Of a stretch of 64,000 nt of DNA, positions 1 to 16,626 are shown piece by piece. The stretch is taken from positions 4,975-68,974 of the forward strand of contig CANRTI010000001.1 of NCBI GenBank assembly GCA_947642635.1. The letters run 5' to 3'. The position numbers and the translations under genes were made by a program. Under the pieces are notes generated by a model. It was not told the origin of the DNA. It did no database searches and was given only the letters and a program-made list of their open reading frames with translations. This DNA comes from an uncultured Mycoplasma sp. Lineage in GTDB: Bacteria; Bacillota_I; Bacilli_A; RF39; UBA660. How positions within the stretch are numbered: position 1 is the first letter of the stretch; each line of letters opens with the position of its first letter.

Positions 1-1121
1 TAGTATTTTTAGGATTTATTACATTAAAAGATGAATTACGAAAGGAAGCTAAAGAAGGTATTAGCTTAATTCAAAATGCTGGAATAAATGTAATAATGAT
101 TACAGGAGATGCTAAAGATACAGCAAAAAATATTGCCAAGGATGTCGGAATCATTAATCATCCAGACGATTTAGTTTTATCTAGTAGTGAATTTAATCAA
201 ATGACTGATGACCAAGTTCAAAAAATTATTTCTCGTCTTAAAGTAGTAGCAAGAGCTCTTCCCCAAGATAAAAGTCGCTTAGTAACAATTTTAGAAAGTA
301 TGAATTTAATTGTAGGGATGACTGGAGATGGAGTTAATGATGCTCCAGCTTTAAAAAAAGCAAATGTTGGTTTTGCAATGGGAAGTGGTACTGAAGTTGC
401 TAAAGAAGCTAGTGATATTGTTATAATAGATAATAATATTTTATCAATTAGTAAAGCGATTTTATATGGTCGAACTATTTTTAAAAGTATTAGACGCTTT
501 GTGATTTATCAATTAACAGTTAATATGACAGCACTATTTTTATCCATTGTTGGTTCTTATATTGGGGTTAGTACTCCTATTACAATTATTCAAATGTTAT
601 GGTTAAATATGATTATGGATACTTTTGCGGGACTAGCATTTTCTTATGAAGCACCACTTACTTATTACATGGGTGAACAACCTAAAAAATTAAATGAACC
701 AATTATAAATAAATATATGTATTCTCAAATAATAATTATGGGCTTATACTCTGCTATATTGTGTATTTTATTTTTAAAATTACCATTTTTTAAATTATTA
801 ATTCGAAGTGATTATAAGCATTTTATGACTGCTTACTTTGCATTATTTATTTTTATTGGAATCTTTAATGCTTTTAATGCTCGAACTGAAAGATTGAATA
901 TTCTATCAAATATTTTAAAAAATAAAGTCTTCTTAATTATATTTTTATTTATTTCTATTGCTCAAATATATTTAATTTATCATGGTCATGATTTGTTTCG
1001 AACATATGGTTTATCAATAAAAGAATTAGTTGTTGTAATCATCTTAGCTTTTAGTGTTATTCCAATTGATTTTATAAGAAAACTCTTATTAAAGAAAAAA
1101 GATATTAAACTAGCAATTTAA
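1..1121 (+). CDS. P-type cation-transporting ATPase (Ca2+-type), C-terminal portion; 5' end outside window
   Basis: The frame is open from the window edge (VFLGFITLKDELRKEAKEG...IMITGD). It has the hinge motif GMTGDGVNDAPALKKANVGFAMG and multiple C-terminal hydrophobic helices. Confidence 0.9.
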   Translation, partial: VFLGFITLKDELRKEAKEGISLIQNAGINVIMITGDAKDTAKNIAKDVGIINHPDDLVLSSSEFNQMTDDQVQKIISRLKVVARALPQDKSRLVTILESMNLIVGMTGDGVNDAPALKKANVGFAMGSGTEVAKEASDIVIIDNNILSISKAILYGRTIFKSIRRFVIYQLTVNMTALFLSIVGSYIGVSTPITIIQMLWLNMIMDTFAGLAFSYEAPLTYYMGEQPKKLNEPIINKYMYSQIIIMGLYSAILCILFLKLPFFKLLIRSDYKHFMTAYFALFIFIGIFNAFNARTERLNILSNILKNKVFLIIFLFISIAQIYLIYHGHDLFRTYGLSIKELVVVIILAFSVIPIDFIRKLLLKKKDIKLAI

Positions 1122-1128
1122 TATCTTT

Positions 1129-1914
1129 TTAAAATGCATTATTTAATTTTTTATAGGATAAATCATAATTATTAAGATGCACACTTTGTTCTTCTGGAAT
1201 TTTTAATTGATGATTATTATGCCATAAAATAACTTTATAAGAATTATTAGTAATACTTACTTCGGGTTCAGGATAATTAAATTTAGCCAATTCTTTTTTG
1301 ATAACTTCCCACCCTTTTTCAGAATCTTCATTAATAATATTATATTCTTGATATAATTTATATAACTTAGGATTTTTTAATAAATCTTTTCTTTCTGGCT
1401 CTACTAATCCTCCGGGACTAGTAAAAATCATACAATTAGGATAAATAGCTATTTTGATAGAAGTATCAATAAATCTTTTATTATAACTACGATGTAATAA
1501 GCAATTATTGATTAGTTCAAAAAGAACTCTGTGTGGATAATTATTCTTTATCTTAGTCTTACAATAATCAGTAATATAATTTAAAGCTTGTTCTTGCATT
1601 TCTAAAATAGTTCCCGTTATTTTAACATTATCACTAGTTTTAATTATCTCACTCAAATTATTTAAATACATTTCTTTATAAGTACTAATTTCAATAAATA
1701 AATGTGGATAATAATCTTGAGGATTTTTACCAAAAAAGATTGTTCCTAATAGAGTTAAATAAATTAAATTGGCTTCTTCTTTGATAATGCCTTTTTTCTT
1801 GAAAAAATCAAATATTTCGGGATTACCAAATAAATTTAAATATTTAACCACATATTCTCTATTTAATTCTTCAATACTTGCATAATCATTTATTTGTAAT
1901 TCTCCATTAAGCAT
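1129..1914 (-). CDS. HATPase_c_4-like putative ATP-binding/transcriptional regulator domain protein (RecG-C-like)
   Basis: The motif ELINNCLLHRSYN...SPGGL parallels EALLNAIIHRDYN...SLGGI of the 432-aa AlbA_2 protein at 26825-28123. The likely start is ATG 1914 (MLNGELQ) with GAGGAAAG upstream, overlapping the stop of the preceding gene (AATGCTTAA). Confidence 0.55.
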   Translation of the reverse strand: MLNGELQINDYASIEELNREYVVKYLNLFGNPEIFDFFKKKGIIKEEANLIYLTLLGTIFFGKNPQDYYPHLFIEISTYKEMYLNNLSEIIKTSDNVKITGTILEMQEQALNYITDYCKTKIKNNYPHRVLFELINNCLLHRSYNKRFIDTSIKIAIYPNCMIFTSPGGLVEPERKDLLKNPKLYKLYQEYNIINEDSEKGWEVIKKELAKFNYPEPEVSITNNSYKVILWHNNHQLKIPEEQSVHLNNYDLSYKKLNNAF

Positions 1915-2326
1915 TTTGATAACTTTCCTCTCTATTTTTTTCTTCCCAAAGTTCATCTACTAAATTATTTTTTGCTTCTAGTAATAACATTTCTTCATTG
2001 ACAGCTATTCCTTTTAAAAGATAATTTTTAATGCCTTTAATTATTTCATCTCGCCAAGAGCCAATAATATCTCTTGAAATTCGAAAAATTAAATAAATGT
2101 AGACATCAAATTTATAGTAGAGTTTCTTTTTTTGGTTTACTTCTATTTCTTTACATACTTCTTCTACTTCGAAATAACTTTTTGAAAAAAGATCAATAAT
2201 ATGAGCATTTATTTCAAAAGGACTAATACCCAGTAAATAACTAAGCGTTTCAATTGACATGTATAACTCATCACTATCAGTATCAAAGTAGCTTCCTAAA
2301 TGATGCAGATTATGATCTATTTGCAT
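1907..2326 (-). CDS. RhuM-like (virulence RhuM family) protein
   Basis: The C-terminal WRDEIIKGIKNYLLKGIAVNEEML resembles the RhuM family segment (FR.WAT..LKEYL.KGF..D). The true start is ATG 2326 after AAAGGAGGTG; the tracked ORF begins at an upstream TTG. Confidence 0.5.
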   Translation of the reverse strand: MQIDHNLHHLGSYFDTDSDELYMSIETLSYLLGISPFEINAHIIDLFSKSYFEVEEVCKEIEVNQKKKLYYKFDVYIYLIFRISRDIIGSWRDEIIKGIKNYLLKGIAVNEEMLLLEAKNNLVDELWEEKNREESYQNA

Positions 2327-2489
2327 ATTTTCACCTCCTTTTGCCAATAATTTTGATTAATTAATTTAAACATAAATTTTCCTCCTTCTATATATATTTA
2401 CGTTTTAAATAGTTGATTTCCTTTTTTTATTTCAAAAAGTTTAGTTTTTGATTAAAAGCCTTTATTTTAAGGCGTATATACAAAAATTT

Positions 2490-2527
2490 AAAGTAATTTT
2501 ACTACTAATTTACTACTTTAGAAAGAG
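2490..2527 (+). repeat. Putative attL direct repeat
   Basis: AAAGTAATTTTACTACTAATTTACTACTTTAGAAAGAG here versus AAAGCAATTTTACTACGAATTTACTACTTTTGAAAGCG at 10963-11000, with 4 mismatches. Confidence 0.6.
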
Positions 2528-2595
2528 TTTTGAAAAAGAGCCTAGATATGCAAGTAGAAACTTTTAAATATTATAATTAAAACGACTAGTAATGA

Positions 2596-2802
2596 CTAAT
2601 CGTTTTCTTTTTTTCCCTTATTATCTTTAAATTCAAGATTATTAAGGGCATATTCTACGCACTGATTTATAAGTTCATTTCTACTAATATCAATTTTACT
2701 AGCAATTTCGTCAATTTTATTTATTCTACTAATATCCATACGAACTGATACCACTATTTTTTCATTATTTATAGGTTTTTTGCTAGGTTGAAAAGTATTC
2801 AT
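2596..2802 (-). CDS. Ribbon-helix-helix (CopG/Arc-like) DNA-binding protein
   Basis: It contains the beta-strand EKIVVSVRMD followed by two helices (ISRINKIDEIASKIDISRNELINQCVEYAL). The ATG at 2802 is the likely start. Confidence 0.55.
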   Translation of the reverse strand: MNTFQPSKKPINNEKIVVSVRMDISRINKIDEIASKIDISRNELINQCVEYALNNLEFKDNKGKKEND

Positions 2803-2895
2803 TTCTATCACGCCCTTTCTTACATATATATTGTAATATTTTTCACACTTTATTAATATATTCAAATCAAATAGTTAAAATATAAACTACACATA

Positions 2896-2924
2896 TTGAC
2901 TACAATAAATAAAAGTGGTAGAAT
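2896..2924 (+). promoter_or_regulatory. Sigma-A-type promoter for the surface-protein/sortase operon
   Basis: TTGACT, a 17-nt spacer, then TGgTAGAAT (extended -10). It lies about 185 nt upstream of the 3110 start. Confidence 0.55.
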
Positions 2925-3109
2925 GTTTTTGTCAGTTATAAGTGTTTATAATTGATGTTGTAATTGTTGGTCGCAGTATGCAGTTAAGCCAACAATAGCA
3001 GTAATGGAACGCCGTAGTTTAGTGTTCCGTATTTTATGGTAATAATATTCTTTATGAATATTTATTATATTTCAATAAAATTTTAGATGTAAGAAAGGAA
3101 AGGTATAAA

Positions 3110-4363
3110 ATGAGAAAGACAAGTAAAATTTTATTATCGGCATTAGCAGTATCTAGTATGTTCTTTACTATGACAGTTAATGCAGAAGAACTAATACCAA
3201 CACCAAGTGAAAACCAAAATATCACAGTAGCACAAGACACTACTACAACAAAAAGTTTAAAAGACTTAACAGAGGAAGAATTAAATAATATTATTCCAAA
3301 GACTATTGAAATAAATGTTACTAAAACAGATTATGTAAACTATATTATAAGAACTAATTTTCAAGAAACAGAGGAAGAAGATATTGTTGAAAAAGCATTA
3401 GAAAGAAAGTTTATAGAAATATTTAATACAAATGGAATAACAAATGTATCAAGTTCTGATTTTTCTGTAGGTTGTGAATTAAGTAGTGGAATAGCATTAA
3501 TGGAAAATGGAAGTATTGGAATAAACGGATTAAATTATGTGGCAGAATTTACTATAAAATATACAAAAGAAAGTGGTTATAGTGAACAAGATGCAACTTA
3601 TGTTAAAAATGCAGTAAATAGTATTAAATTTGCAAAATATAGCGACGATGGAATTTATCAAACTGACGCAGTATTTACAATGTACAATATTGGCGATGAA
3701 GAAAGTGCTAGTAAATGGACTGAAAATACATATGATTTTAGTAAATTATTAAATGATAGTTCTATTACAATTAAAAAGTCATTTGGTATTGGTGGTATAG
3801 GTGGTGGAACACCTTGGGGAACAGGAACAATATTATATTTTTATAAAAATGATGTTCTATATGATATAAAGGATATTATGAATATGGGTGCTTATGGAAC
3901 AACATTAGAAAATGGAACACCAGTAAATATGGCAAGATTAGAAACTGATGACGAAATTTACAAGATAATGTCAAAAGAATTAGAAAGTAAAGGTTTTACA
4001 AATATTTTAGGTTGTTATGAATTAACGGCCTATGGAACAACTTATGACAATATGAAAGTATCATTTACTCTAGGAAATAATTACAATGGTAAAGAAGTAC
4101 AAATATTACATAAAAAGAAAGACAATACTTATGAAATCTTTAAAACAATAGTAGCAGACGGAAAAGCAGAAATAACAGTTAATGAGTTTTCACCTTTTAT
4201 GATTGCTTTAACTGAAAACACTACTACTGAAAATGTAAATAAAGCACCTAACAATGCTCAAACTTCTTCAATAGATGTTGTACTATACTCTATATTGGCT
4301 CTTGGCTCTTTAGTAGGAATTACTTATATTCTAGTTAGTAAGAAGAAAAAGGAAATAGCCTAG
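3110..4363 (+). CDS. Cell-wall-anchored surface protein (sortase-B-type sorting signal NAQTS)
   Basis: It has an N-terminal signal peptide (KILLSALAVSSMFFTMTVNA). The C-terminus carries NNAQTSS, a hydrophobic helix and a KKKKE tail. The sortase gene is immediately downstream. Confidence 0.8.
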   Translation: MRKTSKILLSALAVSSMFFTMTVNAEELIPTPSENQNITVAQDTTTTKSLKDLTEEELNNIIPKTIEINVTKTDYVNYIIRTNFQETEEEDIVEKALERKFIEIFNTNGITNVSSSDFSVGCELSSGIALMENGSIGINGLNYVAEFTIKYTKESGYSEQDATYVKNAVNSIKFAKYSDDGIYQTDAVFTMYNIGDEESASKWTENTYDFSKLLNDSSITIKKSFGIGGIGGGTPWGTGTILYFYKNDVLYDIKDIMNMGAYGTTLENGTPVNMARLETDDEIYKIMSKELESKGFTNILGCYELTAYGTTYDNMKVSFTLGNNYNGKEVQILHKKKDNTYEIFKTIVADGKAEITVNEFSPFMIALTENTTTENVNKAPNNAQTSSIDVVLYSILALGSLVGITYILVSKKKKEIA

Positions 4364-4388
4364 TTGCTATTTCTTTCTATTTAAGACA

Positions 4389-5138
4389 ATGAAAAAAAGA
4401 AAATTTAAAGTAAAAAATATTCTACTTATTTTATTTGTAGTAGTGTTCTTGTTCTCTACTACTAAAATTATATTATTCCTATTCGATTCACACAACAATA
4501 AAAAAGAAACTAAAGAATTGATACAAGATGTTATCAATATAGAAATAGAAGAAGAAAAAGAAGTATTTAAAATTGATTTTGAAAAATTGCTATCTATCAA
4601 TAATGATACTATTGGTTGGATACGATTTAATCAAGACAAAGTAAACAACCCTATTGTACATACAAGGGATAATTCTTATTATCTTAAACGCTCTTTTGAA
4701 AAGAAAAGTAATCAAGCAGGGGCAATATTTATGGACTACCGAAATACATCTTTTAATGATAAAAATGTTGTATTATTCGGTCATGCGATGTTAGATGACA
4801 CAATGTTTGGCTCATTACAAGATATATTTAAAAATGATTTTTTTGATACGAAAGAAAATAACTATATTCAAATATACAACAAAGATAATGAACTTTTAAC
4901 CTATCAAATATTTAGTTATTATATTATTGAAAAAGAAGAATATTATATAACTACTTCATTTAAAAGTGATAGTGATTTCAATAAATTTATTGATACCATT
5001 ACAAAAAGGAGTTATAAGAAGTTTGATGTAGAAGTATTTACAAATGACAATATACTTACTCTTTCTACTTGTTCGGGTACGGGTGGGACATCTAAAAGAA
5101 AAGTCGTACATGCAAAAAGAGTTGAAAATTTAGAATAA
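4389..5138 (+). CDS. srtB: Class B sortase
   Basis: It has an N-terminal TM helix, the motifs IGWIRF...NNPIV and VLFGH, and the catalytic TLSTCS motif. The size is about 250 aa. Confidence 0.85.
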   Translation: MKKRKFKVKNILLILFVVVFLFSTTKIILFLFDSHNNKKETKELIQDVINIEIEEEKEVFKIDFEKLLSINNDTIGWIRFNQDKVNNPIVHTRDNSYYLKRSFEKKSNQAGAIFMDYRNTSFNDKNVVLFGHAMLDDTMFGSLQDIFKNDFFDTKENNYIQIYNKDNELLTYQIFSYYIIEKEEYYITTSFKSDSDFNKFIDTITKRSYKKFDVEVFTNDNILTLSTCSGTGGTSKRKVVHAKRVENLE

Positions 5139-5146
5139 TCTATAAA

Positions 5147-5189
5147 ATAATTTTGGCACAAATAAATGTGATCCAAAATTATTTTTTGT
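5147..5189 (+). terminator. Rho-independent terminator after srtB
   Basis: An 11-bp stem (AATAATTTTGG / CCAAAATTATT) is followed by a T-run. Confidence 0.6.
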
Positions 5190-5248
5190 TTGAGTCTATA
5201 TTATATTGGTTAAAAATGGTATAATTGTAATGAAAGGACGATGGCTTT

Positions 5249-5680
5249 ATGGTTAATGAAATAGAAAATCAAAATAGTATCAAAATTGACGATATTTTTT
5301 ATACTGATAGACATTGTGGCGTAAAAGGACATTATATACAATTTTTTCAAGTTGTCGATGTAAAAGAAAATAATCAAGTTATATTAAGAGAAGTTAAACA
5401 AATACTTGATTCACATAACGAGGAAAATAAAGCAATGGTTATTCCATCTAAAAATCAATTTAAAGATAGTAGCGCCTTTATAGAGGACAATAACATTGGA
5501 ATAGTAAAATCAATAGAATATGATGTTAATAGTAAAAATAATGACACGCCTTATATAATTATGTCCCCTCTTACTTCTAAAAATAAAGAGTCTATAAGTA
5601 TCAATGCTTATTTATGGGACGGACAATCAAAATGTCATTATAACGATTTATTTGAGTATGTAAATAAAGAAAAAATATAA
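5249..5680 (+). CDS. Hypothetical protein (paralog A of a tandem pair)
   Basis: It shares IKIDDIFY, IQFFQVV, VIP..N.FK, IEDNNIG and LWDGQ with the next ORF. Confidence 0.65.
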   Translation: MVNEIENQNSIKIDDIFYTDRHCGVKGHYIQFFQVVDVKENNQVILREVKQILDSHNEENKAMVIPSKNQFKDSSAFIEDNNIGIVKSIEYDVNSKNNDTPYIIMSPLTSKNKESISINAYLWDGQSKCHYNDLFEYVNKEKI

Positions 5681-5703
5681 TTTTTAATAGGAGGTATATT
5701 TAT

Positions 5704-6105
5704 ATGTCAAAGGAAATAAAAAATCAATATGGTGTAAAAATTGGAGATATATTTTATTTTGATAAAAATCAATTTATACAATTCTTTCAAGTTGTTGCTT
5801 TAAAGGGAAAAAGCCAAGTTACTATAAAAGAGGTTGAATTAGAAAAAGTAGGAGAAGATGAGTATAAAAAAGCCCTTGTAATACCCCATCTAAATCATTT
5901 TAAAACTGAATGCCTTTATATAGAAGATAATAATATTGGCGCAACAAAAACTATAAAAAAATATGACGATGGTCGCCTTTATATAAGTTTTAATGATTTT
6001 TTTAATAGAAACCCTGATGGAACATTATTTCTAAAAATGTCTTATTATCAAATAGCCAATTTATGGGACGGGCAACCAAGAATACATTGCCTTAACTATT
6101 ATTAA
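5704..6105 (+). CDS. Hypothetical protein (paralog B of a tandem pair)
   Basis: The SD TAGGAGG lies upstream. The conserved blocks are shared with 5249-5680. Confidence 0.65.
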   Translation: MSKEIKNQYGVKIGDIFYFDKNQFIQFFQVVALKGKSQVTIKEVELEKVGEDEYKKALVIPHLNHFKTECLYIEDNNIGATKTIKKYDDGRLYISFNDFFNRNPDGTLFLKMSYYQIANLWDGQPRIHCLNYY

Positions 6106-6130
6106 AATATTTTTTAAAGGAGCATGAGAT

Positions 6131-6550
6131 ATGAATAATTTAAAAGAAGAATTTGACAAAAATTTTGAACTAGACAAAGAAATAAATAAAACCTATGTTG
6201 AGGTTATGGAAGTGGTAAAAAAGACACATAAACCTACCCTACAAAAATTTATTGACGAAACGGGACTAGGTAAAGGAACTTTTTATAATCTAACTAATGG
6301 CTACAAAAAACCACTCATGACATCGCTTGTTGCGTTTGCAGTAGTATTTAAAATCAATTTAAAAAATGTTGAAGATTTACTACGAGCATGGGGACTAGGT
6401 TTTGAGCCAGGTAATAAAGTACATCATGCCTACTCACAACTTATAGAAAAATTTAGTGGTAAATCAATGGCAGAATGTAACGAATTCTTAAAAGAAGTCG
6501 GAATTCATGAAAAATATTGGTTAAATGATGGCAGAGAAACTAGACAATAA
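6131..6550 (+). CDS. Putative helix-turn-helix DNA-binding protein
   Basis: The SD AAAGGAG lies upstream. It has an HTH-like segment, LQKFIDETGLGKGTFYNLTNGYKKP. Confidence 0.5.
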   Translation: MNNLKEEFDKNFELDKEINKTYVEVMEVVKKTHKPTLQKFIDETGLGKGTFYNLTNGYKKPLMTSLVAFAVVFKINLKNVEDLLRAWGLGFEPGNKVHHAYSQLIEKFSGKSMAECNEFLKEVGIHEKYWLNDGRETRQ

Positions 6551-6560
6551 TTAAAAATTA

Positions 6561-6593
6561 GAGCATATTTTCAAAAAATATGTTCTTTTTTTT
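6561..6593 (+). terminator. Rho-independent terminator
   Basis: The hairpin GAGCATATTTT-caa-AAAATATGTTC is followed by T8. Confidence 0.7.
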
Positions 6594-6608
6594 ATGTCTT
6601 GAAACGAA

Positions 6609-6713
6609 AATTTCCATCATTGGTGGAATTTTTAACCTTTAAAACAAACACTTTTTAAATTATAAACCTTTTAAACCCTTTATTTATAAGGCTTTAATTT
6701 CCATCGTCGGTGG
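6609..6713 (+). repeat. Two copies of AATTTCCATCRTYGGTGG (candidate iterons/operators)
   Basis: AATTTCCATCATTGGTGG is at 6609-6626 and AATTTCCATCGTCGGTGG at 6696-6713. Both are in the non-coding gap between the cargo and transfer modules. Confidence 0.45.
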
Positions 6714-6802
6714 GCTACGGAATTCAAAATTCTTGCTAGAATGGACTTGTAATTTGAAAGGCGCCAACTAAAATTACAAACAAAATTTAACGAAAGGAGA
6801 AA

Positions 6803-7006
6803 ATGGCGAACATGATAAATATTGAGTTACCTTGCAAAGTTGAGGAACGCGTAAGTGCTAAAACTGGTAAATCTTACATTGTAGTAGCAATTAGAGTTGA
6901 TGACGACTACGAAATGTTACTATTCCCAAGCAACGAACAACAAGCAGTTATTCGTATGGCGTTCAAAAATAGCAAGCCAAAATTTAAAACGAGTCAACAA
7001 GACTAA
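6803..7006 (+). CDS. Small hypothetical protein (67 aa)
   Basis: The SD GAAAGGAG lies upstream. The 5' UTR holds a 9-bp-stem hairpin, TTGTAATTT...AAATTACAA. Confidence 0.55.
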   Translation: MANMINIELPCKVEERVSAKTGKSYIVVAIRVDDDYEMLLFPSNEQQAVIRMAFKNSKPKFKTSQQD

Positions 7007-7085
7007 TTAAACCCTTAATGTTATATCTTTCTATTATTTTAAATAGTAGTTAGATTAGCATTAAGGTAAATTTATAAAAATTATT

Positions 7086-7167
7086 GCTACATGCTACATG
7101 CTACATATAAGGGGTAATACTAGCCCTTATATGGTGGGGGCTAAAGTGGCTACGCCACTCGCCCCAC
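7086..7167. promoter_or_regulatory. Rolling-circle-type origin/nic site: iterons, then a stem-loop with the TAGTATTAC nonanucleotide, then a GC-rich nested hairpin
   Basis: GCTACAT occurs three times in tandem (7086-7106). The stem is ATATAAGGG (7105-7113) paired with CCCTTATAT (7124-7132). The loop GTAATACTAG is the reverse complement of CTAGTATTAC. A nested hairpin GTGGGG..AGTGGC-tac-GCCACT..CCCCAC spans 7134-7167. Confidence 0.7.
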
Positions 7168-7259
7168 TCATGGGCGTGTATTAACTAGTATATGTATTAG
7201 CGCATTAGTTCTTTGAAAATTTAATAATAATCTAAACTATAAAAAATAGGAGTGATAAC

Positions 7260-8246
7260 ATGGCAGATAATAGCCAAAGTCGTAAATGGGCTTTAACGAT
7301 AAATAACCCACTAGAACATGGCTTTACGGATGAAGTAATAAAAGAAACTTTGCAAAAATTCGCTCTTGACTACTATTGTATGTGTAAGGAAATCGGAAAC
7401 GAAACTCAAACACTTCACATTCATATATTTATGTATTCAAAATCGCCGATTCGCTTTACAACGATACAGAGTCGCTTTAACAAAATAGCCCACATAGAAA
7501 AAGCCTACGGGACTATACAAGATAACATTGACTATGTGAGAAAAACGGGCAAGTTTGAAAATACAGACAAAGCCGAAACATCTATTGAGGGCAGTTTTGA
7601 AGAATACGGAACGATACCATCGGAACTACAAGAAAAAGACCCCATTATAGGGCAATTATTAGAGGATATTAAAGATGGCAAGTCAAACATCGAAATAATA
7701 GAAAATAACCCACAATGGGCTTTAAAAATACGAGATATAGACTTAATTAGAGAAACTTATCTTGCAGACAAGTACATGAAAGAAAATCGCGACATCATAG
7801 TAACTTATGTTTATGGTAAAACGGGCGTTGGTAAGACACGAGATATATACAAAAGGCATGGTGCTAAAAATATATGTCGTATCACGAATTATACAAGTAG
7901 TAGAGGTGTGAATTTTGACTCATATAAAAGCACTATGAGTACCCTAGTTTTTGAGGAATTTCATAGTCAAATACCCATCGGCGATATGCTTAACTATACC
8001 GATATATACCCCCTTATGCTACCAGCGAGATATAGCGACAAAGTGGCTTGTTACACTTATGTATATATAACTTCAAATGTTCCCCTAGAGGAGCAATATT
8101 ATGACTTACGATGTAGTCTAAAGTATAGAGAAGTTTGGGACGCATTTTTGCGTAGAATTCATAACATAATTGAGTACAAAATTGATGGTTCAATTATAGA
8201 ACATAAATTAACTAAAAAATTGGAGGAATTAGAAAATGAAAAATAA
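7260..8246 (+). CDS. rep: Rep protein, HUH endonuclease plus SF3 helicase (CRESS-DNA virus / pCRESS plasmid type; probable relaxase/initiator of the element)
   Basis: Motif I is WALTINNP, motif II is HIHIF and motif III is YVRKTGK. Walker A is GKTGVGKT, Walker B is LVFEEF and motif C is ITSN. Confidence 0.85.
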   Translation: MADNSQSRKWALTINNPLEHGFTDEVIKETLQKFALDYYCMCKEIGNETQTLHIHIFMYSKSPIRFTTIQSRFNKIAHIEKAYGTIQDNIDYVRKTGKFENTDKAETSIEGSFEEYGTIPSELQEKDPIIGQLLEDIKDGKSNIEIIENNPQWALKIRDIDLIRETYLADKYMKENRDIIVTYVYGKTGVGKTRDIYKRHGAKNICRITNYTSSRGVNFDSYKSTMSTLVFEEFHSQIPIGDMLNYTDIYPLMLPARYSDKVACYTYVYITSNVPLEEQYYDLRCSLKYREVWDAFLRRIHNIIEYKIDGSIIEHKLTKKLEELENEK

Positions 8247-9453
8247 AATAATGAATATATTAAAAAAAATAAATTATATTAAGATTTATATTGTGTTGTT
8301 ATACATAATAGTAGCACAATTATTATGGCACTCAAGAGGCTATGTAATAGATTACATGGTTTCAAAAGCCACAACTGAATTACAAATAAAAATGATAAAT
8401 GCAGTAGTCAATATTGGGCTTGCACTACTTTTAACGCTAATCTTAATAGCACTAATAATAACTTTAAAAAGACACAATAAAGCCAAAGAAGAAGAACAAA
8501 AAAATGTTCAAGATGTCGGCTTAAAAAATGAAAGTGGCGAATATACGGAAATAATTGATATTTTAGATGGCGAAGAAGAAAACGAGTCTATATATGTTAT
8601 AGACCCTAAAAATATTTCTATTGAAAAATTAAGAGCAAGACAAGACGATATAGAAACGGCTTATCATATAGATATACATTATATGACACCAAGAATACCA
8701 ACAAAATATATCAATGTTTATGCAACACCTAGAGATTTATTACACCCTAAACTATTCCAAGTAACCCTAAATGACAACTTACTAGACGACTTTTTATCGG
8801 CTTTAGTAGTTGGAAGTACGGGAAGTGGTAAAACATATTTTACACACCAATTACTAGGAAAAATAGCCTTAAATAAATCTTGTAATGGTGAAGATGTACG
8901 AGTATTTATAAGTGATATAAAAAATGAAGATTTTAGACAATTTAAAAATCGTCCTAATTATTATGGTATCAATGCAATAGATGGAATTAAAGAGGTCCAT
9001 AAAATACTTAAAGAGCGTATGGAAAATGACGAAGACAACGAAGATAAAGAAACAATTATTCTTTTAATTGAAGAATATGCAGTACTTCTCAATTCAATAA
9101 AGAATAAAAGTGATAAAGAGGAAATTAAAGATATGGTTGCAGATTTATTGTTTATAGGGCGTAGCAAAAAAATAATAACAATAGTAAGCCTACAAAGAGC
9201 AGACGCAGAATACTTTGTAAGAGGTGCTAGAGAACAATTTAAAAAAATAATTTTGATGGGCGAAATATCCGATACTCAAAAGAAAATGCTTTTAGACGAA
9301 AAAAAGCAGAAACAAATTAGAGAAGTTAATAAACAAGGATATGGATACCTTTGCGAAGATGGAAAAATGAAAGTTACGCGTATTCAAGTAGCAAAAATTT
9401 CACAAAAGGACAAAGAAGAAATTGACAATATTATAAGTAGTAAGATGGTTTAA
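8236..9453 (+). CDS. FtsK/SpoIIIE-TcpA-like membrane DNA translocase (coupling protein)
   Basis: It has two N-terminal TM helices, Walker A VVGSTGSGKT and Walker B-like IILLIEE. Confidence 0.75.
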   Translation: MKNKIMNILKKINYIKIYIVLLYIIVAQLLWHSRGYVIDYMVSKATTELQIKMINAVVNIGLALLLTLILIALIITLKRHNKAKEEEQKNVQDVGLKNESGEYTEIIDILDGEEENESIYVIDPKNISIEKLRARQDDIETAYHIDIHYMTPRIPTKYINVYATPRDLLHPKLFQVTLNDNLLDDFLSALVVGSTGSGKTYFTHQLLGKIALNKSCNGEDVRVFISDIKNEDFRQFKNRPNYYGINAIDGIKEVHKILKERMENDEDNEDKETIILLIEEYAVLLNSIKNKSDKEEIKDMVADLLFIGRSKKIITIVSLQRADAEYFVRGAREQFKKIILMGEISDTQKKMLLDEKKQKQIREVNKQGYGYLCEDGKMKVTRIQVAKISQKDKEEIDNIISSKMV

Positions 9454-9690
9454 ATGGTAGATAATATCAACTATCAAGAGTCTTGTAAAAATATGATATA
9501 TGTTCCTATAAGTGAAAAATATACGCTTACTATTGAAGAAGCGTCAAAGTATTTCCGTATTGGCGAAAATAAACTTCGTAAACTAGCAGAAGAAAACCTA
9601 AACGCAAGTTGGGTTTTAATGAATGGCAACCGAATTCAAATAAAAAGAAAGCAATTTGAAAAAATTATTGATACTTTAAATGTAATTTAA
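9454..9690 (+). CDS. xis: Excisionase-family DNA-binding protein (Tn916 Xis-like)
   Basis: It is a 78-aa protein lying immediately upstream of int. It has an HTH segment, [20 protein letters not shown]. Confidence 0.7.
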
Positions 9691-9769
9691 TGAAAATTGA
9701 GCCTTAATGTGTGATATAATGTTATTGCATATCAAGGCTCTTTCTATTATTGAAAGGAGCAAAAAAAAT

Positions 9770-11059
9770 ATGATAGAAAAAAGACGCGATAAAAGAAATC
9801 GTATTTTACATAACGGAGAGAGCCAAAGAAAAGATGGAAGATATGTTTATAAATATACCGATAGTTTCGGCAAACCACAATTTATATATGCTTGGAAGTT
9901 AGTACCAACCGATAAAACACCAAACGGGAAACGCGACGACAAATCTTTAAGAGAAAAGGAACAAGAAATTTTAAAGGACATTAACGATGGAATCGACACC
10001 ATAGGTAAAAAAATAAGTGTATGTCAATTATATGCTAAAAAAAATAATCAACGACCAAATGTTAAAGATAGCACTAAAATAGGAAGAAATAGACTTATGA
10101 GGTTATTAGAAGAAGATAAAATCGGTGCTTGTTCTATTGAAAATGTTAAGATGTCGGACGCCAAAGAATGGGCTATACGCATGAAAGAAAAAGGAATAGC
10201 CTACCAAACAATAAGAAATGACAAGCGTTCTTTATATTCAGCGTTTCAAATGGCTATACAAGACGACTATATAAGGAAAAACCCGTTTGAGTTTAAAATT
10301 GACGATGTAATAGATAATGACACCGAGAAGAATATACCCCTTACATTAGAACAAGAAGAAAGCCTATACTCTTTTATTCAAAATGATAAAACATACTCTA
10401 AAAACTATGACGAAATTATTTTAATAAGAGAAACGGGACTTCGTATATCGGAATTTTGCGGACTGATAGACACCGACCTAGATTTTGATAATAGACTTAT
10501 CAATGTAGAACGCCAACTTTTAAGAAATACCGAACGAGGTTATTATATTGACGATACTAAAACCGATAATGGGGTAAGAAAAGTACCTATGAGCGACAAA
10601 GCGTTTGAAATCTTTAAGCGTATAATAGATAATTGTAAAAACGCAAAAACTATTGTTATTGATGGTTATAGTGGTTTCCTATTCTTAAAAAGAGATGGAT
10701 ACCCAAAAGTACGAGATAACTACGAAAGTATATTTAAAGGAATTGTTAAAAAATACAATAAATGTCATGAAGAACAACTTCCTAAAAAAATGACACCACA
10801 TACATTAAGACATACCTTTTGTACTAATTGGGCTAACGATGGACTAAACCCTCATACATTACAATATATTATGGGGCATAAAAATATTGAAATGACATTA
10901 AGTTATTATACACACCCTACCTATATGTCGGCAAAAGCAGAGATGGAAAAAATAAATAAACAAAAGCAATTTTACTACGAATTTACTACTTTTGAAAGCG
11001 AAAATATAAGAAATTATAAAAATATATGTGAATATCTTCCAAAATTAAAAATGTCTTAA
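9770..11059 (+). CDS. int: Tyrosine recombinase, Tn916-family integrase
   Basis: The N-terminal arm-binding segment RRDKRNRILHNGESQRKDGRYVYKYTDSFGKPQF is Tn916 Int-like. It also has GLRISEFCGL, HTLRHTF and LSYYTH (catalytic Tyr). The start is ATG 9770 after GAAAGGAG. Confidence 0.9.
   Translation: MIEKRRDKRNRILHNGESQRKDGRYVYKYTDSFGKPQFIYAWKLVPTDKTPNGKRDDKSLREKEQEILKDINDGIDTIGKKISVCQLYAKKNNQRPNVKDSTKIGRNRLMRLLEEDKIGACSIENVKMSDAKEWAIRMKEKGIAYQTIRNDKRSLYSAFQMAIQDDYIRKNPFEFKIDDVIDNDTEKNIPLTLEQEESLYSFIQNDKTYSKNYDEIILIRETGLRISEFCGLIDTDLDFDNRLINVERQLLRNTERGYYIDDTKTDNGVRKVPMSDKAFEIFKRIIDNCKNAKTIVIDGYSGFLFLKRDGYPKVRDNYESIFKGIVKKYNKCHEEQLPKKMTPHTLRHTFCTNWANDGLNPHTLQYIMGHKNIEMTLSYYTHPTYMSAKAEMEKINKQKQFYYEFTTFESENIRNYKNICEYLPKLKMS
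10963..11000 (+). repeat. Putative attR direct repeat (inside the 3' tail of int)
   Basis: It matches 2490-2527. It begins where similarity to the Tn916 Int C-terminus ends (…EKINKQKQ | FYYEFTTFE…). Confidence 0.6.
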
Positions 11060-11194
11060 ATGCTTATAAATAAAGGTTATAAAGACATTTAAGAACTTAT
11101 AAAAATATAATCAAAAAATTACACTATTTTTAACCACAAAAAAATGAAAAAAACGTTAATTTTCTTCATTTTGAATTCATTTTTCTCTTAAAAA

Positions 11195-13312
11195 TTAATT
11201 TTCAACTAAATTATTATTGTGAATTAATTTTTCTAAATTTTTATAACCAACTTGTTCATAATTACTTTTTTCAATAATAGTCTCTTTATTGAGAACTTTT
11301 TTAATCTTCAAATATTTTTCTAATCCATCTTTAGTTAAACTAGAAAACTTAATCGTCGCATCAACTAAATCTTCTAATTCATTTTCTCTTTGACTAGATA
11401 GTTCATTACTAAAACCAACTTTACGATTAGATAAAACATCATCAGTGATAAAAATAAAGGAATTATTAAAATAAATCTTATCACCTTTATTGTCACGGAT
11501 ATATCCTTCTTTTAATATCTCTTTAATTAATTCTTTGACACTTTGATGAGCTGCTTGATAATTATCAAATAAAATAATACTAAAATTATTGTTTTTTAAA
11601 GTACTAAGAAGATGTTCATCATTATAGCCAACATACCCACTATTAACACCAATTAATTTATTTAAATCCATACTACTATGATATTCTTTTAAATCGATGC
11701 GAACAAAATTATTTCCTGGAATATTTTCCGCAATTCTTTTCACAATCGTACTTTTTCCTAATCCTTCACTACCAGTTAAATAAATTTTTAAAAAACCTTT
11801 TTTATTTAATAAATTATCTTTTATTAAACACATTATTTTTTTGACATAATTATTAATACCATATAATTCTTTATTTAAATTATCTTCAATATCTTTTAAA
11901 CAATTTAATTTATTTTTTGTAAATATCATATTAGTTTTATTTTCTAAAACATTTATAATATCACTTTCCCTTAAAATTAGTTTTTGACTTTGTTGATAAT
12001 TTTTAATTTTTTTATTTATAGCTAACTCTTCACTATATATTTTTAAAGCATTATCATAATCATTTTTCTTTAATAATTTTTCTTTAGTTTTCTTTAAAGC
12101 TTCTAATTTTCGATATAATTCTTTTTTTTCAGGGCAATAATTATTTTGAGTTTTAACTTTAGAACAAACAGAATCTAGAAAATCAATCGCTTTATCTGGA
12201 TTTTTCTTAGTTTTAATAAATTTATCAGTATAATAAATAACTGAATCAATAATATTATCATTTATAATAACATTATGATGACGTTCATATTCACCTTTAA
12301 CTTTACTTAAAATTTCTTTAGTTTCAGCACTGTTAGGTTCTCTTACATTAACCATTTCAAATCTTCTAGTCAATGCTTTATCACAAGCAAAATATTTTTG
12401 GTATTCACTAGTAGTTGTAGCCCCAATACATTTAATTTTTCCTCTAGCTAAAGCTGGTTTAAAAATATCACCTGCGGTAATTGCGCCTTCTGCTCCACCA
12501 GCGCTAACCATCGAATGAATTTCATCAATAAATAAAATAATATTACTGTTATTTTCTAATTCTTTAATTATTTTAGTTAATTTCTCTTCAAATTCACCAC
12601 GGTACTTTGTTCCTGATACTAATGAACCCATTTCTAAAGCCACTATTTTAGTATTATATAAATTGTCAGGAACTTCTTTTCTTTCAATTCGGCGAACTAA
12701 TTCTTCAACAATTGCTGTCTTTCCAACCCCAGCATCGCCAATTAAAATTGGATTGTTTTTCTTTTTTCTAAGTAATGTTTCAATAATTTGTTCAATCTCT
12801 TTTTCACGGCCAATGACATTTTCTTCAAAATTTATCGAATTATTTAATAATATTCCCGTTTCATAAATTTCTAATTTTTTATTTGCAGTCAAATTATTTT
12901 TATTCAAATTTTCATAAATTTCATCAATATCAATACCCATGCCAATTAAAAGACGAATAGCAATACCTTCACCTTCTTCTAAAATAGAAAGAACTAAATG
13001 TCTTGGTGTTACCAGTGAATTATTATTTTCTTTGGCATTATCAAGAGCATTATTTATTACTCTTTTTAAAAGAGGGGTATAAAGATTGATTTCACAAGCT
13101 TTAGTAGCATTTCCTACCATTATATTTAATTCTTTTTTAAAGCTACTATATGTTAGATTATATTCTTTTAAATAATTAGCCATATCTTTATCTAGTGCTA
13201 ATATTCCTAACAATAAATGTTCTGTACCAACATACGGATGATGTAGTGTTAAACGTTCTTCTTCCGCTTTCCGGAAAATATTAGATACATGTACTCCAAA
13301 ATTATTAAACAT
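11195..13312 (-). CDS. clpC: ClpC-like AAA+ ATPase (Clp_N repeats, intact D1, degenerate D2)
   Basis: It has the Clp_N motif HPYVGTEHLLLGIL. D1 has GDAGVGKTAIVEEL and ILFIDEIH. D2 has GSEGLGKS, but its Walker B is ILFDNYQ. A KVGF ClpP-loop-like motif is present. Confidence 0.8.
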   Translation of the reverse strand: MFNNFGVHVSNIFRKAEEERLTLHHPYVGTEHLLLGILALDKDMANYLKEYNLTYSSFKKELNIMVGNATKACEINLYTPLLKRVINNALDNAKENNNSLVTPRHLVLSILEEGEGIAIRLLIGMGIDIDEIYENLNKNNLTANKKLEIYETGILLNNSINFEENVIGREKEIEQIIETLLRKKKNNPILIGDAGVGKTAIVEELVRRIERKEVPDNLYNTKIVALEMGSLVSGTKYRGEFEEKLTKIIKELENNSNIILFIDEIHSMVSAGGAEGAITAGDIFKPALARGKIKCIGATTTSEYQKYFACDKALTRRFEMVNVREPNSAETKEILSKVKGEYERHHNVIINDNIIDSVIYYTDKFIKTKKNPDKAIDFLDSVCSKVKTQNNYCPEKKELYRKLEALKKTKEKLLKKNDYDNALKIYSEELAINKKIKNYQQSQKLILRESDIINVLENKTNMIFTKNKLNCLKDIEDNLNKELYGINNYVKKIMCLIKDNLLNKKGFLKIYLTGSEGLGKSTIVKRIAENIPGNNFVRIDLKEYHSSMDLNKLIGVNSGYVGYNDEHLLSTLKNNNFSIILFDNYQAAHQSVKELIKEILKEGYIRDNKGDKIYFNNSFIFITDDVLSNRKVGFSNELSSQRENELEDLVDATIKFSSLTKDGLEKYLKIKKVLNKETIIEKSNYEQVGYKNLEKLIHNNNLVEN

Positions 13313-13396
13313 AAAATTTCTCCCTTACCATTCTATGAATATATTGTTTTATTTAGAAGAATTTTATACAAAAAAAACTAAGATTTGAAAAATATC

Positions 13397-15286: not shown

Positions 15287-15306
15287 ATTAGTTCCTCCTT
15301 ATGCCC

Positions 15307-15912: not shown

Positions 15913-15922
15913 TTTACTTCAC

Positions 15923-16624: not shown

Positions 16625-16626
16625 AA

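Follow-up and report, generated by a model that had tools for sequence, protein, structure and literature searches.

A probable rolling-circle origin cassette of circovirus type in an integrated pCRESS2-type element

Based on a 64,000-nucleotide stretch of DNA from an uncultured Mycoplasma sp., analysed as a whole and hereafter called the window, we assign positions 7086-7167 with good confidence to the cassette from which a pCRESS2-type element of about 8.7 kb, plasmid-like, mobilizable and integrated, would start rolling-circle replication. The assignment draws on the anatomy of the cassette, on its conservation and covariation among related loci, on the family of the adjoining Rep, and on the joint travel of cassette and Rep across integrated elements, a plasmid and phages. 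Both the RF03070 motif of Rfam and integrated elements with circovirus-like Reps (pCRESS2, IME class 7) are already known. Since motif, Rep family and type of element have each been catalogued, the cassette adds a well-supported example to a known kind of system; one new detail is the inversion of the whole cassette relative to rep.

Anatomy of the cassette, its Rep and the element

The features are listed below by their positions in the window.

2436-11133, no strand: whole integrated element of about 8.7 kb, from the homology limits among about 12 related loci; ends +/-15 nt
2596-5138: variable cargo, comprising a small repressor-like ORF, a surface protein and a sortase
7086-7106, minus: iterons, three tandem 7-nt GCTACAT; read directly, with the repeat finder concurring (3 x 7 nt family)
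7104-7133, minus: predicted nick hairpin, a perfect 10-bp stem with a 10-nt loop; from sequence and fold, with the repeat finder concurring
7134-7167, minus: GC-rich nested hairpin that immediately precedes the nick hairpin in the 5' to 3' reading of the nonamer strand
7172-7201, plus: degenerate copy of the nonamer and 3' arm (GGGCGTGTATTAACTAGTATATGTA...) in opposite orientation, flanked by the cassette and the likely rep promoter
7260-8246, plus: Rep of the pCRESS2 group, in which a single-tyrosine HUH nuclease is joined to an SF3 helicase (PF02407, match to PCV2 Rep)
8236-9453, plus: membrane-anchored FtsK/SpoIIIE-like ATPase, a candidate coupling protein of TcpA-like type; the start of its gene overlaps the stop codon of rep
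9454-9690, plus: Tn916-type excisionase (PF09035, E = 3.1e-19)
9707-11059, plus: Tn916-type tyrosine integrase (PF00589 3.6e-36, PF02920 7.7e-33)

The three heptamers, which an earlier sequence-only reading of this DNA had placed correctly to the base, read as ATGTAGC x3 on the minus strand, i.e. the strand of the nonamer, where they lie directly 3' of the nick hairpin; they are predicted to be the Rep-binding repeats. The stem, described there as perfect over 9 bp, is indeed perfect but 10 bp long, with CATATAAGGG (7104-7113) pairing with CCCTTATATG (7124-7133) at all ten positions. The loop GTAATACTAG (7114-7123) is the reverse complement of CTAGTATTAC, and the nonamer TAGTATTAC is found inside it from 7122 to 7114 on the minus strand, as had been claimed. 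By analogy with circoviruses, the cut is predicted at TAGTATT/AC, on the minus strand between 7116 and 7115. In the GC-rich hairpin the outer arms are GTGGGG (7134-7139) and CCCCAC (7162-7167), and the inner hairpin is AGTGGC-TAC-GCCACT (7145-7159). On the minus strand the order is thus GC hairpin (7167 to 7134), nick hairpin (7133 to 7104) and ATGTAGC x3 (7106 to 7086), and the cassette ends 92 nt before the rep ATG (7260). On the whole, a nonanucleotide (NAGTATTAC) in a stem-loop, iterons beside the stem and a Rep with HUH and SF3 domains, by which an origin of CRESS type is recognized, are all present.

The cassette is also distinct within the window. The minus strand from 7175 to 7080 folds at -19.7 kcal/mol, compared with -10.3 +/- 2.0 for shuffled sequences (z = -4.65), and 0 of 200 shuffles are as good. 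The GC content reaches 0.57 at 7110-7169 against 0.17-0.40 alongside, which bears out the earlier remark that the GC-rich hairpin stands out. By itself TAGTATTAC is unremarkable, with 3 copies in the window versus 1.26 expected; the origin's copy is the sole one borne by a hairpin, those at 15423 and 56231 being without flanking complementarity. The double iteron GTAGCATGTAGC is unique to the cassette within the window (0.11 expected).

Between the cassette and rep, the degenerate copy at 7172-7201 matches at 25 of 48 positions in one register, versus 8-17 in twelve others, and the repeat finder reports it as an inverted repeat (I1) with 19 of 25 positions complementary to 7102-7126. This box may be a relic of an ancestral origin in rep sense, or a Rep operator. 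As it is kept in the related locus L013, whose Rep is 65% identical, it may be functional and not a relic. Statistical support for an inversion by palindromic duplication (7172-7196 against 7102-7126) is modest.

The Rep carries HUH motifs I (WALTINN), II (HIHIF) and III (YVRK, with Y92), and SF3 motifs Walker A (GKTGVGKT), Walker B (FEEF) and C (SN). It matches PF02407 with 27.2 bits (cut-off 26), and its closest solved structure is the Rep of porcine circovirus 2 (7LAR, E = 2.8e-10), aligned over residues 7-280 and thus over both domains. H53, Y92, K95, G191-K192-T193, E233, S272 and N273 are invariant across the Reps of IMEs, plasmid and phages; H55 is conserved too, alongside H53, Y92, K95, Walker A/B and motif C. 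In a comparison with published pCRESS2 and pCRESS1 sequences, its identity amounts to 50-53% with three pCRESS2 Reps, falls to 39% with a divergent member of that group, and is 23% with pCRESS1. Motif III is YLxH in pCRESS4-8, and Asn in motif C marks pCRESS2/3 (PMC6668415); the YVRK found here is unlike the former, and the Asn fits the latter.

Homology with about 12 related loci begins at 2418-2435 and ends at 11121-11153, and one related contig (L002) starts and stops at the same points. The element is ordered as left end, variable cargo, small ORFs, origin, rep, ftsK-like gene, xis, int and right end, with the module from origin to int alone spanning 7086-11059. This module of origin, rep, FtsK-like gene and recombinase is kept among relatives even where the recombinase type is swapped. 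The flanks are chromosomal (P-type ATPase and ClpC genes), and no tRNA is found in 1-14000. The product of 8236-9453 has a hydrophobic N-terminus; it scores 22.6 bits against PF01580, just under the cut-off of 24, and 1.3e-16 against the FtsK/SpoIIIE-like PHROG, and the gene in the same position in relatives scores 63-73 bits against PF01580. Together with the PF00589 and PF02920 matches of the integrase, this agrees with the setting proposed before, an integrative element with a tyrosine integrase and a DNA translocase. Mating-pore or conjugation families are matched by none of the element ORFs of at least 60 aa, and capsid families of Pfam and PHROGs by no element ORF. Integrated, about 8.7 kb long, with integrase, excisionase and FtsK-like ATPase and with no capsid match, the element is not a virus. 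For the ORFs at 5249-5680, 5704-6105, 6131-6550 and 6803-7006, searches relaxed to E = 10 give nothing in Pfam or NCBIfam and nothing useful in PHROGs, and the '2k5d-like SSB' annotated by Kazlauskas et al. in pCRESS2 elements is not confirmed among the small ORFs upstream of the origin. Outside the element, helper conjugation genes are absent among the five large ORFs scanned at 13-38 kb. A circular or extrachromosomal form was not detected, and the two contigs equal to the element (L002, L167) are without terminal overlap, which speaks neither for nor against an excised circle.

Conservation in related loci and parallels in other replicons

The strongest argument that the cassette is no product of chance is its conservation, with covariation, in related loci. 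In total, 30 distinct homologous hairpins have perfect stems of 8-15 bp which differ in sequence, with adjoining Reps 26-99% identical to that of the window; most of them have the loop nAGTATTAC followed by 2-3 direct repeats, and most distal stem positions show 3-4 Watson-Crick pair types. These pair counts are anchored on the hairpins; a MAFFT alignment of 27 origins shifted the stems and was unfit for counting. Stem-loop and repeats are kept across about 60 related loci with compensatory changes in the stem, and nearly all of 51 genome loci, as well as 5 metagenome contigs, have beside rep a perfect hairpin that bears nAGTATTAC and is followed by GTAGC repeats. Homologous elements therefore do conserve stem-loop and nonamer, the check that the sequence-only reading had itself named. 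The nonamer is kept in the loop for Reps down to 40% identity while the stems vary, and the hairpin tracks rep, the upstream genes differing from locus to locus. Nearly all relatives have the core repeat GTAGC(A/G) 3' of the hairpin; loci with a variant loop carry other repeats (ATCGCA, TAGCAG, GTACCA, TGTCGA, TGTCGCA, TTGTAAAA), and loop and iterons have changed jointly in L029, L031 and L037.

The three-part order on the nonamer strand is constant, whether the cassette faces rep or is inverted. In Clostridia-clade loci the motif lies on the rep strand, with the repeats abutting the ribosome-binding site. Throughout the clade of the window (more than 15 loci, Rep 65-99% identical), the whole cassette is inverted relative to rep, so that the motif is fully kept on the strand opposite to rep and more than 90 nt away; L013, L168 and L171 likewise have it on the opposite strand. 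The GC-rich hairpin inverts together with the nick hairpin. Its consensus fold in this clade has 7 pairs kept through changes on both sides, the inner GTGGC-N3-4-GCCAC being conserved and the outer stem covarying, and all 9 of the 9 replicons that were folded, p4M and inoviruses among them, have a stable long hairpin at the corresponding distance and side of the nonamer (z between -2.3 and -6.2). No T-run comes after the GC-rich hairpin and no terminator is called there, nor does it show any of the known sso sequence motifs; by position and structure it may be a single-strand (complementary-strand) origin or an accessory structure of the origin.

A pattern scan of IMG/VR for nonamer and iterons gives 111 matches, of which about 80 stem from a single conserved coding sequence that recurs in small viral contigs and forms no stem; these were rejected. 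Only 4 are real hairpins (L063, L077, L098, L145), showing that the cassette is rare in predicted viral contigs. Two contigs, L045 and L046, both begin inside the loop. A biological end at the nick site was considered and dismissed, because the two first differ at base 120; the assembly has probably broken where a repeat shared by both ends.

Outside integrated elements, the autonomous plasmid p4M of Bifidobacterium pseudocatenulatum and filamentous phages (bajarodino viruses; ctbe30/ctbc27 of Tisza et al. 2020) have the same three-part layout upstream of rep: a GC hairpin, a hairpin with (C)TAGT(A/G)TTAC, and direct repeats. Differences are that these replicons are extrachromosomal or encapsidated, that they fall below the RF03070 threshold, that their iterons are GTACCA, TGTCGA, TGTCGCA or TTGTAAAA, and that their Reps are overall only 26-43% identical to that of the window; in the three inovirus genomes with this layout the identity is 40-43%. 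Neither an integrase nor an FtsK-like gene is annotated in the phage genomes. Phages which join inovirus genes with a CRESS-type Rep had been noted before (PMC7000223); this origin is not described in the literature that we searched on the nonamer, pCRESS stem-loops and bajarodino viruses. Since p4M and inoviruses need a replication origin, the shared layout supports the origin reading, and the occurrence of the same cassette with related Reps means that it is best read as the Rep-cognate rolling-circle origin. Together with the HUH/SF3 Rep and the covariation, these parallels uphold the earlier claim of a circovirus-type stem-loop with iterons which serves rep.

Compared with the origins of PCV1 and PCV2, which likewise present TAGTATTAC at the tip of a perfect stem (about 10-11 bp) and have short direct repeats adjoining it, the repeats here are 7-mers with the core GTAGC instead of hexamers (PMC7659335). 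The cognate Rep is of the HUH and SF3 type in both, and PCV2 Rep is the best solved match. In the family of the present element the repeats follow the stem on its 3' side, as read along the nonamer strand. The element differs in an extra GC-rich hairpin on the 5' side, in having no capsid gene, and in being an integrated bacterial replicon of about 8.7 kb. In addition, its origin is inverted relative to rep, as in cycloviruses but unlike in circoviruses.

Among bacterial elements, the pCRESS2 integrated plasmids of Kazlauskas et al. 2019 are among the closest, sharing the Rep at the identities given above, an FtsK-like ATPase, an integrase and a Firmicute-type chromosome; as the Rep groups with pCRESS2 and the integrated element has both an FtsK-like ATPase and a site-specific recombinase, it belongs with them. 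Most of those elements lie in tRNA genes, whereas the element studied here has Tn916-type Int/Xis and an AT-rich non-tRNA site (PMC6668415). Neither a nonanucleotide nor a stem-loop is mentioned anywhere in that paper and 13 of its supplementary files (PMC6668415), and the origin reported here thus adds to it. IME class 7 is defined by Rel_PF02407, TcpA and a tyrosine integrase, its relaxase being putative and non-canonical (Coluzzi et al. 2017, Guedon et al. 2017; PMC5357655, PMC5704250), and PF02407 proteins beside TcpA-like ATPases have been proposed as relaxases of mobilizable elements (PMC5357655, PMC5704250). All three signature genes are present in the window and mating-pore genes are absent, which places the element in this class. 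For this class two streptococcal examples only were reported, with the nic site undefined (Coluzzi et al. 2017, Guedon et al. 2017), and tcpA is upstream of the relaxase gene there, whereas the ftsK-like gene is downstream of rep here (PMC5357655). Mobilization is a proposal for both. A functional model is given by ICEBs1 and Tn916, with a rolling-circle-type initiator beside an FtsK-like coupling protein (PMC5704250), although their initiators are of the Rep_trans/MobT family, without a fused helicase and with unrelated recognition sequences.

Replication origin, transfer origin or RNA

The Rfam entry suggests that the motif is a structured RNA (a 5' leader or a small RNA) regulating the downstream helicase/rep gene, which we consider very unlikely. 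The minus strand at 7085-7134 matches RF03070 ("ssNA-helicase RNA") with 57.4 bits (E = 2.3e-09), above the gathering score of 41.5, over the full model (positions 1-49 of 49, repeats included), and relatives reach 45-71 bits. Model and cassette share a hairpin with a UAGUAUUA loop and then UGUAGCA UGUAGCA, the model having two repeats and the cassette three. RF03070 is filed as an RNA gene (type sRNA) of unknown function upstream of helicase genes; it comes from the screen of Weinberg et al. 2017, whose main text is silent on it (PMC5737381). In the window the motif is upstream of a Rep/helicase gene, on the opposite strand and not on the same one as RF03070 has it. The authors reportedly chose 'ssNA' because they could not distinguish RNA from single-stranded DNA. 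The Clostridia arrangement, next to the ribosome-binding site, would suit an RNA; however, the inversion of the cassette in the window clade with full conservation argues against such a role. Besides, the loop agrees exactly with the nick sequence of circoviruses, the direct repeats are unpaired and co-vary with it like protein-binding iterons, the protein that goes with the motif is an HUH nuclease, an enzyme known to act on DNA loops of this kind, and no promoter-like site for a minus-strand transcript is called near the cassette. Hardly credible is a palindrome or terminator unrelated to Rep, such as the operator of an HTH repressor or the terminator of an upstream operon, in which the nonamer would be coincidental. 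The window does have about 9 perfect stems of at least 10 bp, hairpins are common at its gene ends, and the nonamer alone is not over-represented; yet no T-run follows the hairpin, a promoter and terminator scan calls nothing at the cassette, and across loci the loop is kept through changing stems and follows rep, not the upstream genes.

An improbable but more serious rival is that the site is an oriT only, with Rep as a pure relaxase, helper type IV secretion, FtsK/TcpA-like coupling and no autonomous rolling-circle replication. Rep, FtsK-like ATPase and recombinase are tightly linked in all clades, the element is without conjugation genes of its own, and the literature on class 7 has a putative non-canonical relaxase (PMC5357655, PMC5704250). 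However, the cassette-Rep pair is present also in the filamentous phage genomes, where no FtsK-like gene or integrase is annotated, and the small plasmid p4M must replicate with it. Rep also has a complete SF3 replicative helicase, and origins of replication typically have iterons and a structured element beside the nick site. In the best-studied parallels, ICEBs1 NicK and Tn916 Orf20, one site is both oriT and the replication origin of the excised element (PMC5704250). We therefore favour a rolling-circle origin. With the help of the neighbouring FtsK-like ATPase it may plausibly serve in transfer too, which would agree with published hypotheses for such elements (PMC5357655, PMC5704250).

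Proposed mechanism and implications

The functional steps that we infer for this origin are as follows. The element would be excised as a circle by Int and Xis, its iterons would be bound by Rep and the hairpin extruded. Tyr92 of the HUH domain would then cut TAGTATT/AC on the minus strand (7116/7115) and stay joined to the 5' end; the free 3'-OH would prime leading-strand synthesis, with the SF3 helicase domain of Rep unwinding the duplex, and the displaced minus strand would be closed at the regenerated hairpin. The GC hairpin, which would be the last to be exposed on the displaced strand, may serve complementary-strand synthesis. For transfer, the Rep-DNA intermediate would probably be passed to the membrane FtsK-like ATPase and thence to the mating pore of a helper element. 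The strand that would be displaced is antisense to every gene of the element, so replication would run head-on into rep, ftsK, xis and int; such head-on replication in the window clade is unusual, not prohibitive.

A wider proposal can be advanced only tentatively, and may well not hold in full: RF03070 would be no RNA but two parts, nonamer-bearing nick hairpin and iterons, of a portable three-part cassette that begins with a complementary-strand hairpin and moves with pCRESS2-type Reps among integrated elements, plasmids and filamentous phages, and in FtsK-linked elements the Rep would double as a conjugative relaxase. If so, a single DNA-processing step would serve both replication of circovirus style and conjugative mobilization, and the clade-wide inversion would switch the displaced or transferred strand, here to the template strand of every element gene; this inversion is also a simple argument for RF03070 acting as DNA. 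Three catalogue entries, an orphan Rfam motif, the pCRESS2 Reps and the class-7 mobilizable elements, would be joined in one testable mechanism, with an exact predicted nick site (minus strand, 7116/7115) for gut-bacterial elements whose processing site the literature searched left undefined. Beyond Rep alone, these bacterial relatives share the sequence and the layout of the circovirus origin, which strengthens the plasmid-to-virus scenario for CRESS-DNA viruses.

Origin cassette and Rep protein

The features upstream of rep, and those of the genes around it, are as follows.

Features of the origin and the element (positions in the window)
2596-5138: variable cargo block with a small repressor-like ORF, a surface protein and a sortase
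7086-7106: iterons, three perfect GCTACAT heptamers, ATGTAGC on the minus (nonamer) strand; from sequence and repeat finder
7104-7113 and 7124-7133: 10-bp nick hairpin stem, CATATAAGGG paired with CCCTTATATG; from sequence and repeat finder
7134-7139 and 7162-7167: GTGGGG and CCCCAC, outer arms of the GC-rich nested hairpin, with inner AGTGGC-TAC-GCCACT; from sequence
7260: ATG start codon of rep (7260-8246)
Rep motifs: motif I, WxLTINNP; motif II, H53 and H55; motif III, Y92xxK95; Walker A, GxGKT; Walker B, EEF; motif C, S272 and N273; each conserved in an alignment of relatives
8236-9453: FtsK/SpoIIIE-like ATPase with a hydrophobic N-terminus (PF01580, 22.6 bits; PHROG FtsK-like, 1.3e-16)
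9454-9690: Tn916-type excisionase
9707-11059: Tn916-type integrase

Reverse-complemented, the 10-nt hairpin loop GTAATACTAG reads CTAGTATTAC, which puts the nonamer TAGTATTAC on the minus strand, running from 7122 to 7114. The heptamers, the nonanucleotide in the loop and the GC-rich hairpin at 7134-7167 had all been described in the sequence-only reading and are confirmed here; its perfect stem stands as a hairpin, with a length of 10 bp and not 9 bp. The repeat finder recovers both the hairpin and the family of heptamers, the fold of the minus strand is more stable than that of shuffled sequences by 4.65 sd, and the GC content reaches 0.57 at the cassette against 0.17-0.40 in the adjoining stretches on either side. 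The nonamer alone is not significant (3 copies in the window, 1.26 expected), and no stem was found around the other two copies in the window, while the double iteron occurs at one site only in the whole window. Between the cassette and rep, at 7172-7201, there is also a degenerate nonamer with a copy of the 3' arm, GGGCGTGTATTAACTAGTATATGTATTAGC, in opposite orientation. This copy is complementary to 7102-7126 at 19 of 25 positions and is also kept in the related locus L013. It might be what is left of an ancestral origin in rep orientation, produced by palindromic duplication about the GC hairpin, or it might serve as an operator for Rep.

Rep, a protein of 328 aa encoded by 7260-8246, hits Pfam Viral_Rep PF02407 at 27.2 bits (cut-off 26), and its nearest solved structure is porcine circovirus 2 Rep (7LAR, E = 2.8e-10), in an alignment over residues 7-280 which covers both nuclease and helicase. 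The motif alignment took in Reps of integrated elements, a plasmid and phages. Among the groups pCRESS1-9, defined as mostly integrated elements with circovirus-like Reps and with FtsK-like ATPases common to pCRESS1-3 (Kazlauskas et al. 2019, PMC6668415), the Rep is 50-53% identical to members of pCRESS2, while only 23% to pCRESS1. A nonanucleotide or stem-loop is absent from the main text and 13 supplementary files of that study. The streptococcal class 7 elements likewise join a PF02407 protein, a TcpA-type ATPase and a tyrosine integrase, and the Rep-like protein was proposed to be the relaxase, possibly serving maintenance too (Coluzzi et al. 2017, Guedon et al. 2017; PMC5357655, PMC5704250). 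On the minus strand, 7134-7085 is a full-model match to Rfam RF03070, 'ssNA-helicase RNA' (57.4 bits, gathering score 41.5), whose consensus places UAGUAUUA in the loop of the hairpin and UGUAGCAUGUAGCA after it; this Rfam motif was found in the screen of Weinberg et al. 2017 (PMC5737381), with no discussion in the main text. The locus belongs to the already known RF03070, pCRESS2 and IME class 7.

Conservation and inversion of the cassette

The scan for Rep relatives, with one genome per species, gave 51 loci, to which 5 further metagenome contigs were added. Loci with 85-99% Rep identity are gut MAGs labelled Tenericutes or Bacilli, with one locus at 65%, and those with 48-58% are Clostridia (Oscillospiraceae, Acutalibacteraceae, Lachnospiraceae), including the isolates Flavonifractor sp. 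An306 and Oscillibacter sp. MSJ-31. As the sequence-only reading had asked of homologous elements, the stem-loop is kept: a perfect hairpin with an nAGTATTAC loop adjoins rep in nearly all loci having enough upstream sequence, and 2-3 direct repeats, usually with the core GTAGC(A/G), always lie directly 3' of the stem on the nonamer strand. All replicons pooled, there are 30 distinct hairpins, every one perfectly paired across 8-15 bp, with 3-4 different Watson-Crick pair types at most loop-distal positions, which is compensatory change on a large scale. Three loci depart from the common loop AGTATTAC: L029 (5900-5990) and L031 (690-770) have AAGCATTG and three ATCGCA iterons, and L037 (5910-5990) has TACCATTG and TAGCAG-type repeats. 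Judged from these sequences, the joint change of loop and iterons is the pattern to be expected if nick site and binding sites are fitted to the cognate Rep.

Read along the nonamer strand, the cassette has an invariant order: a structured GC-rich hairpin comes first, the nick hairpin second and the iterons last. In the Clostridia clade it lies on the rep strand, 65-89 nt upstream of the ATG, with iterons abutting the ribosome-binding site. In the window clade, that is all loci with Rep at least 65% identical (including L013 and L167-L171), the whole cassette is inverted, so that rep and the nonamer are on opposite strands and rep is faced by the GC hairpin instead of the iterons. The outer pairs of this hairpin covary in the window clade around a conserved inner GTGGC-N3-4-GCCAC, with 7 pairs retained through two-sided changes, and a stable long hairpin is at the matching relative position in all nine replicons folded (z -2.3 to -6.2). 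The GC hairpin inverts jointly with the nick hairpin and so has a role linked to the nonamer strand rather than to transcription of rep. In rolling-circle plasmids and filamentous phages, the displaced strand carries a complementary-strand origin immediately before the nick site, and by this analogy we infer that the GC hairpin may be a single-strand origin or an origin accessory structure.

Several relatives deserve separate mention. L168-L171 (e.g. L171, 7071-8960), with Rep 65-68% identical and the cassette likewise inverted, carry a large serine recombinase in place of the Tn916-type Int/Xis, with origin, rep and ftsK retained. Two contigs of Oscillibacter sp. MSJ-31 (L045 and L046, 1-120) hold module copies 92% identical and start at the identical base within the origin loop (TAAGTATTAC...); their starts were set aside as biological ends, as the first difference is at base 120 and an assembly break at a shared repeat is therefore probable. 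L035 and L036, with which L032 is grouped, have upstream sequence, origin and Rep match in common, and come from MAG bins named Cellulosilyticum sp. and Methanosphaera stadtmanae in a single study, most likely a mis-binned mobile contig rather than an archaeal host.

The element and its surroundings

Compared with a dozen close relatives, the element ends near 2436 and 11133. Chromosomal genes flank it, namely those for a P-type ATPase and, at the other end, ClpC, with IF-2 further out. Mating-pore genes were found neither in the element nor among the large ORFs sampled outside it, and there are no tRNA genes in window 1-14000. The cargo at 2596-5138 is present in L008 and L167 and missing from L001/L002 (97% identical); it comprises a minus-strand CopG/repressor-like small ORF, a secreted protein of 417 aa anchored in the membrane at its C-terminus, and a sortase. 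On a mobilizable element, a surface protein that comes with its own sortase might help cells to make contact. Two adjacent paralogous ORFs, 5249-5680 (143 aa) and 5704-6105 (133 aa), are about 43% identical in tblastn searches of relatives; neither matches a family in Pfam, NCBIfam or PHROGs, and both are conserved across related elements in variable copy number. Beside the left end, the overlapping minus-strand ORFs 1129-1956 (HATPase_c_4) and 1907-2347 resemble a broken copy of the AlbA_2 + HATPase_c_4 gene that is intact at 26825-28123. On the other side, the minus strand of 13397-19638 carries a cluster of secreted/surface genes: a 629-aa ORF without family, ORFs of 201 and 233 aa, and a 1003-aa Cadherin-like + Big_2 protein.

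Proposed function of the origin

The only PLSDB plasmid with a Rep relative is the 4.5-kb p4M of Bifidobacterium pseudocatenulatum (Rep 26-29% identical), with the order FtsK-domain gene, GC hairpin, hairpin GTGGGCGG/CCGCCCAC with loop CATAGTGTTAC, GTACCA GTACCA, repA. The phage collection holds six records of 'bajarodino viruses' with Reps 40-43% identical. These circular genomes of 5.7-10.2 kb are assigned to Inoviridae and carry Zot genes, joined in one record by RstB-like genes; inovirus genes and a CRESS-type Rep in one phage were previously noted (Tisza et al. 2020, PMC7000223). All three genomes inspected have CTAGTATTAC in a hairpin loop on the coding strand upstream of rep, preceded by a GC-rich hairpin and followed by their own repeats (TGTCGA, TGTCGCA or TTGTAAAA). 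Phages and plasmid require a replication origin, and no FtsK-like gene or integrase is annotated in the phage genomes; the cassette therefore goes with Rep, not with transfer or integration genes. A further set of about 80 small viral contigs (IMG/VR, L052-L162) was rejected as an accidental fit to the nonamer-plus-iteron pattern, without hairpin, in a shared conserved coding start (reverse strand ...GCAGTATTACCCGCTGC...GTAGCAGTAGCCAT), a caution against origin searches by pattern alone.

Mainly because the cassette goes with Rep in phages and plasmid, the site is called a replication (nick) origin first, and it is probably the nick origin cognate to this Rep; the circovirus-type reading made from the sequence was correct. 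That it should be an oriT only is weakened by the same phages and plasmid, and by the helicase fused to Rep. Rep is tightly linked, as a gene, to a membrane FtsK-like ATPase in every clade, also where a serine recombinase replaces the tyrosine integrase, which lends likelihood to a second use of the nick for mobilization, as in ICEBs1/Tn916 (PMC5704250); granted a nick origin, the chances of such dual use as oriT would be about evenly balanced.

The name 'ssNA' of the Rfam motif reportedly reflects the doubt of its authors between RNA and ssDNA. Related loci match RF03070 as well, with the motif on the rep strand in those from Clostridia and opposite to rep in L013, L168 and L171; the threshold is not reached in L029, L031 and L037, in p4M, or in the two inovirus genomes scanned (L164, L165). 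An action as RNA, as Rfam has it, becomes less likely given full conservation in spite of the strand inversion, the behaviour of the iterons, and a loop identical to a known DNA nick site. Nor does a terminator or operator unrelated to Rep fit, for the hairpin has no T-run and stays with rep while upstream genes vary.

For the Rep-cognate nick origin, we propose that Int and Xis would first excise the element, and Rep would then bind the ATGTAGC iterons. Once the hairpin is extruded, Tyr92 would cut the minus strand at TAGTATT/AC, between 7116 and 7115. This strand would be displaced by leading-strand synthesis, and Rep would reseal it at the regenerated hairpin; the GC hairpin, displaced last, may support complementary-strand synthesis. 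For every gene of the element in the window clade, the displaced strand would be the antisense strand, with the fork running head-on into rep-ftsK-xis-int.

What is added here is the identification of an Rfam 'RNA', RF03070, with a circovirus-type DNA origin, the three-part cassette conserved over integrated elements, a plasmid and filamentous phages, its inversion across a whole clade, and the joint change of loop and iterons. The variant-specificity origins of L029, L031 and L037, within the same Rep family, are a natural experiment to map the determinants of Rep specificity.
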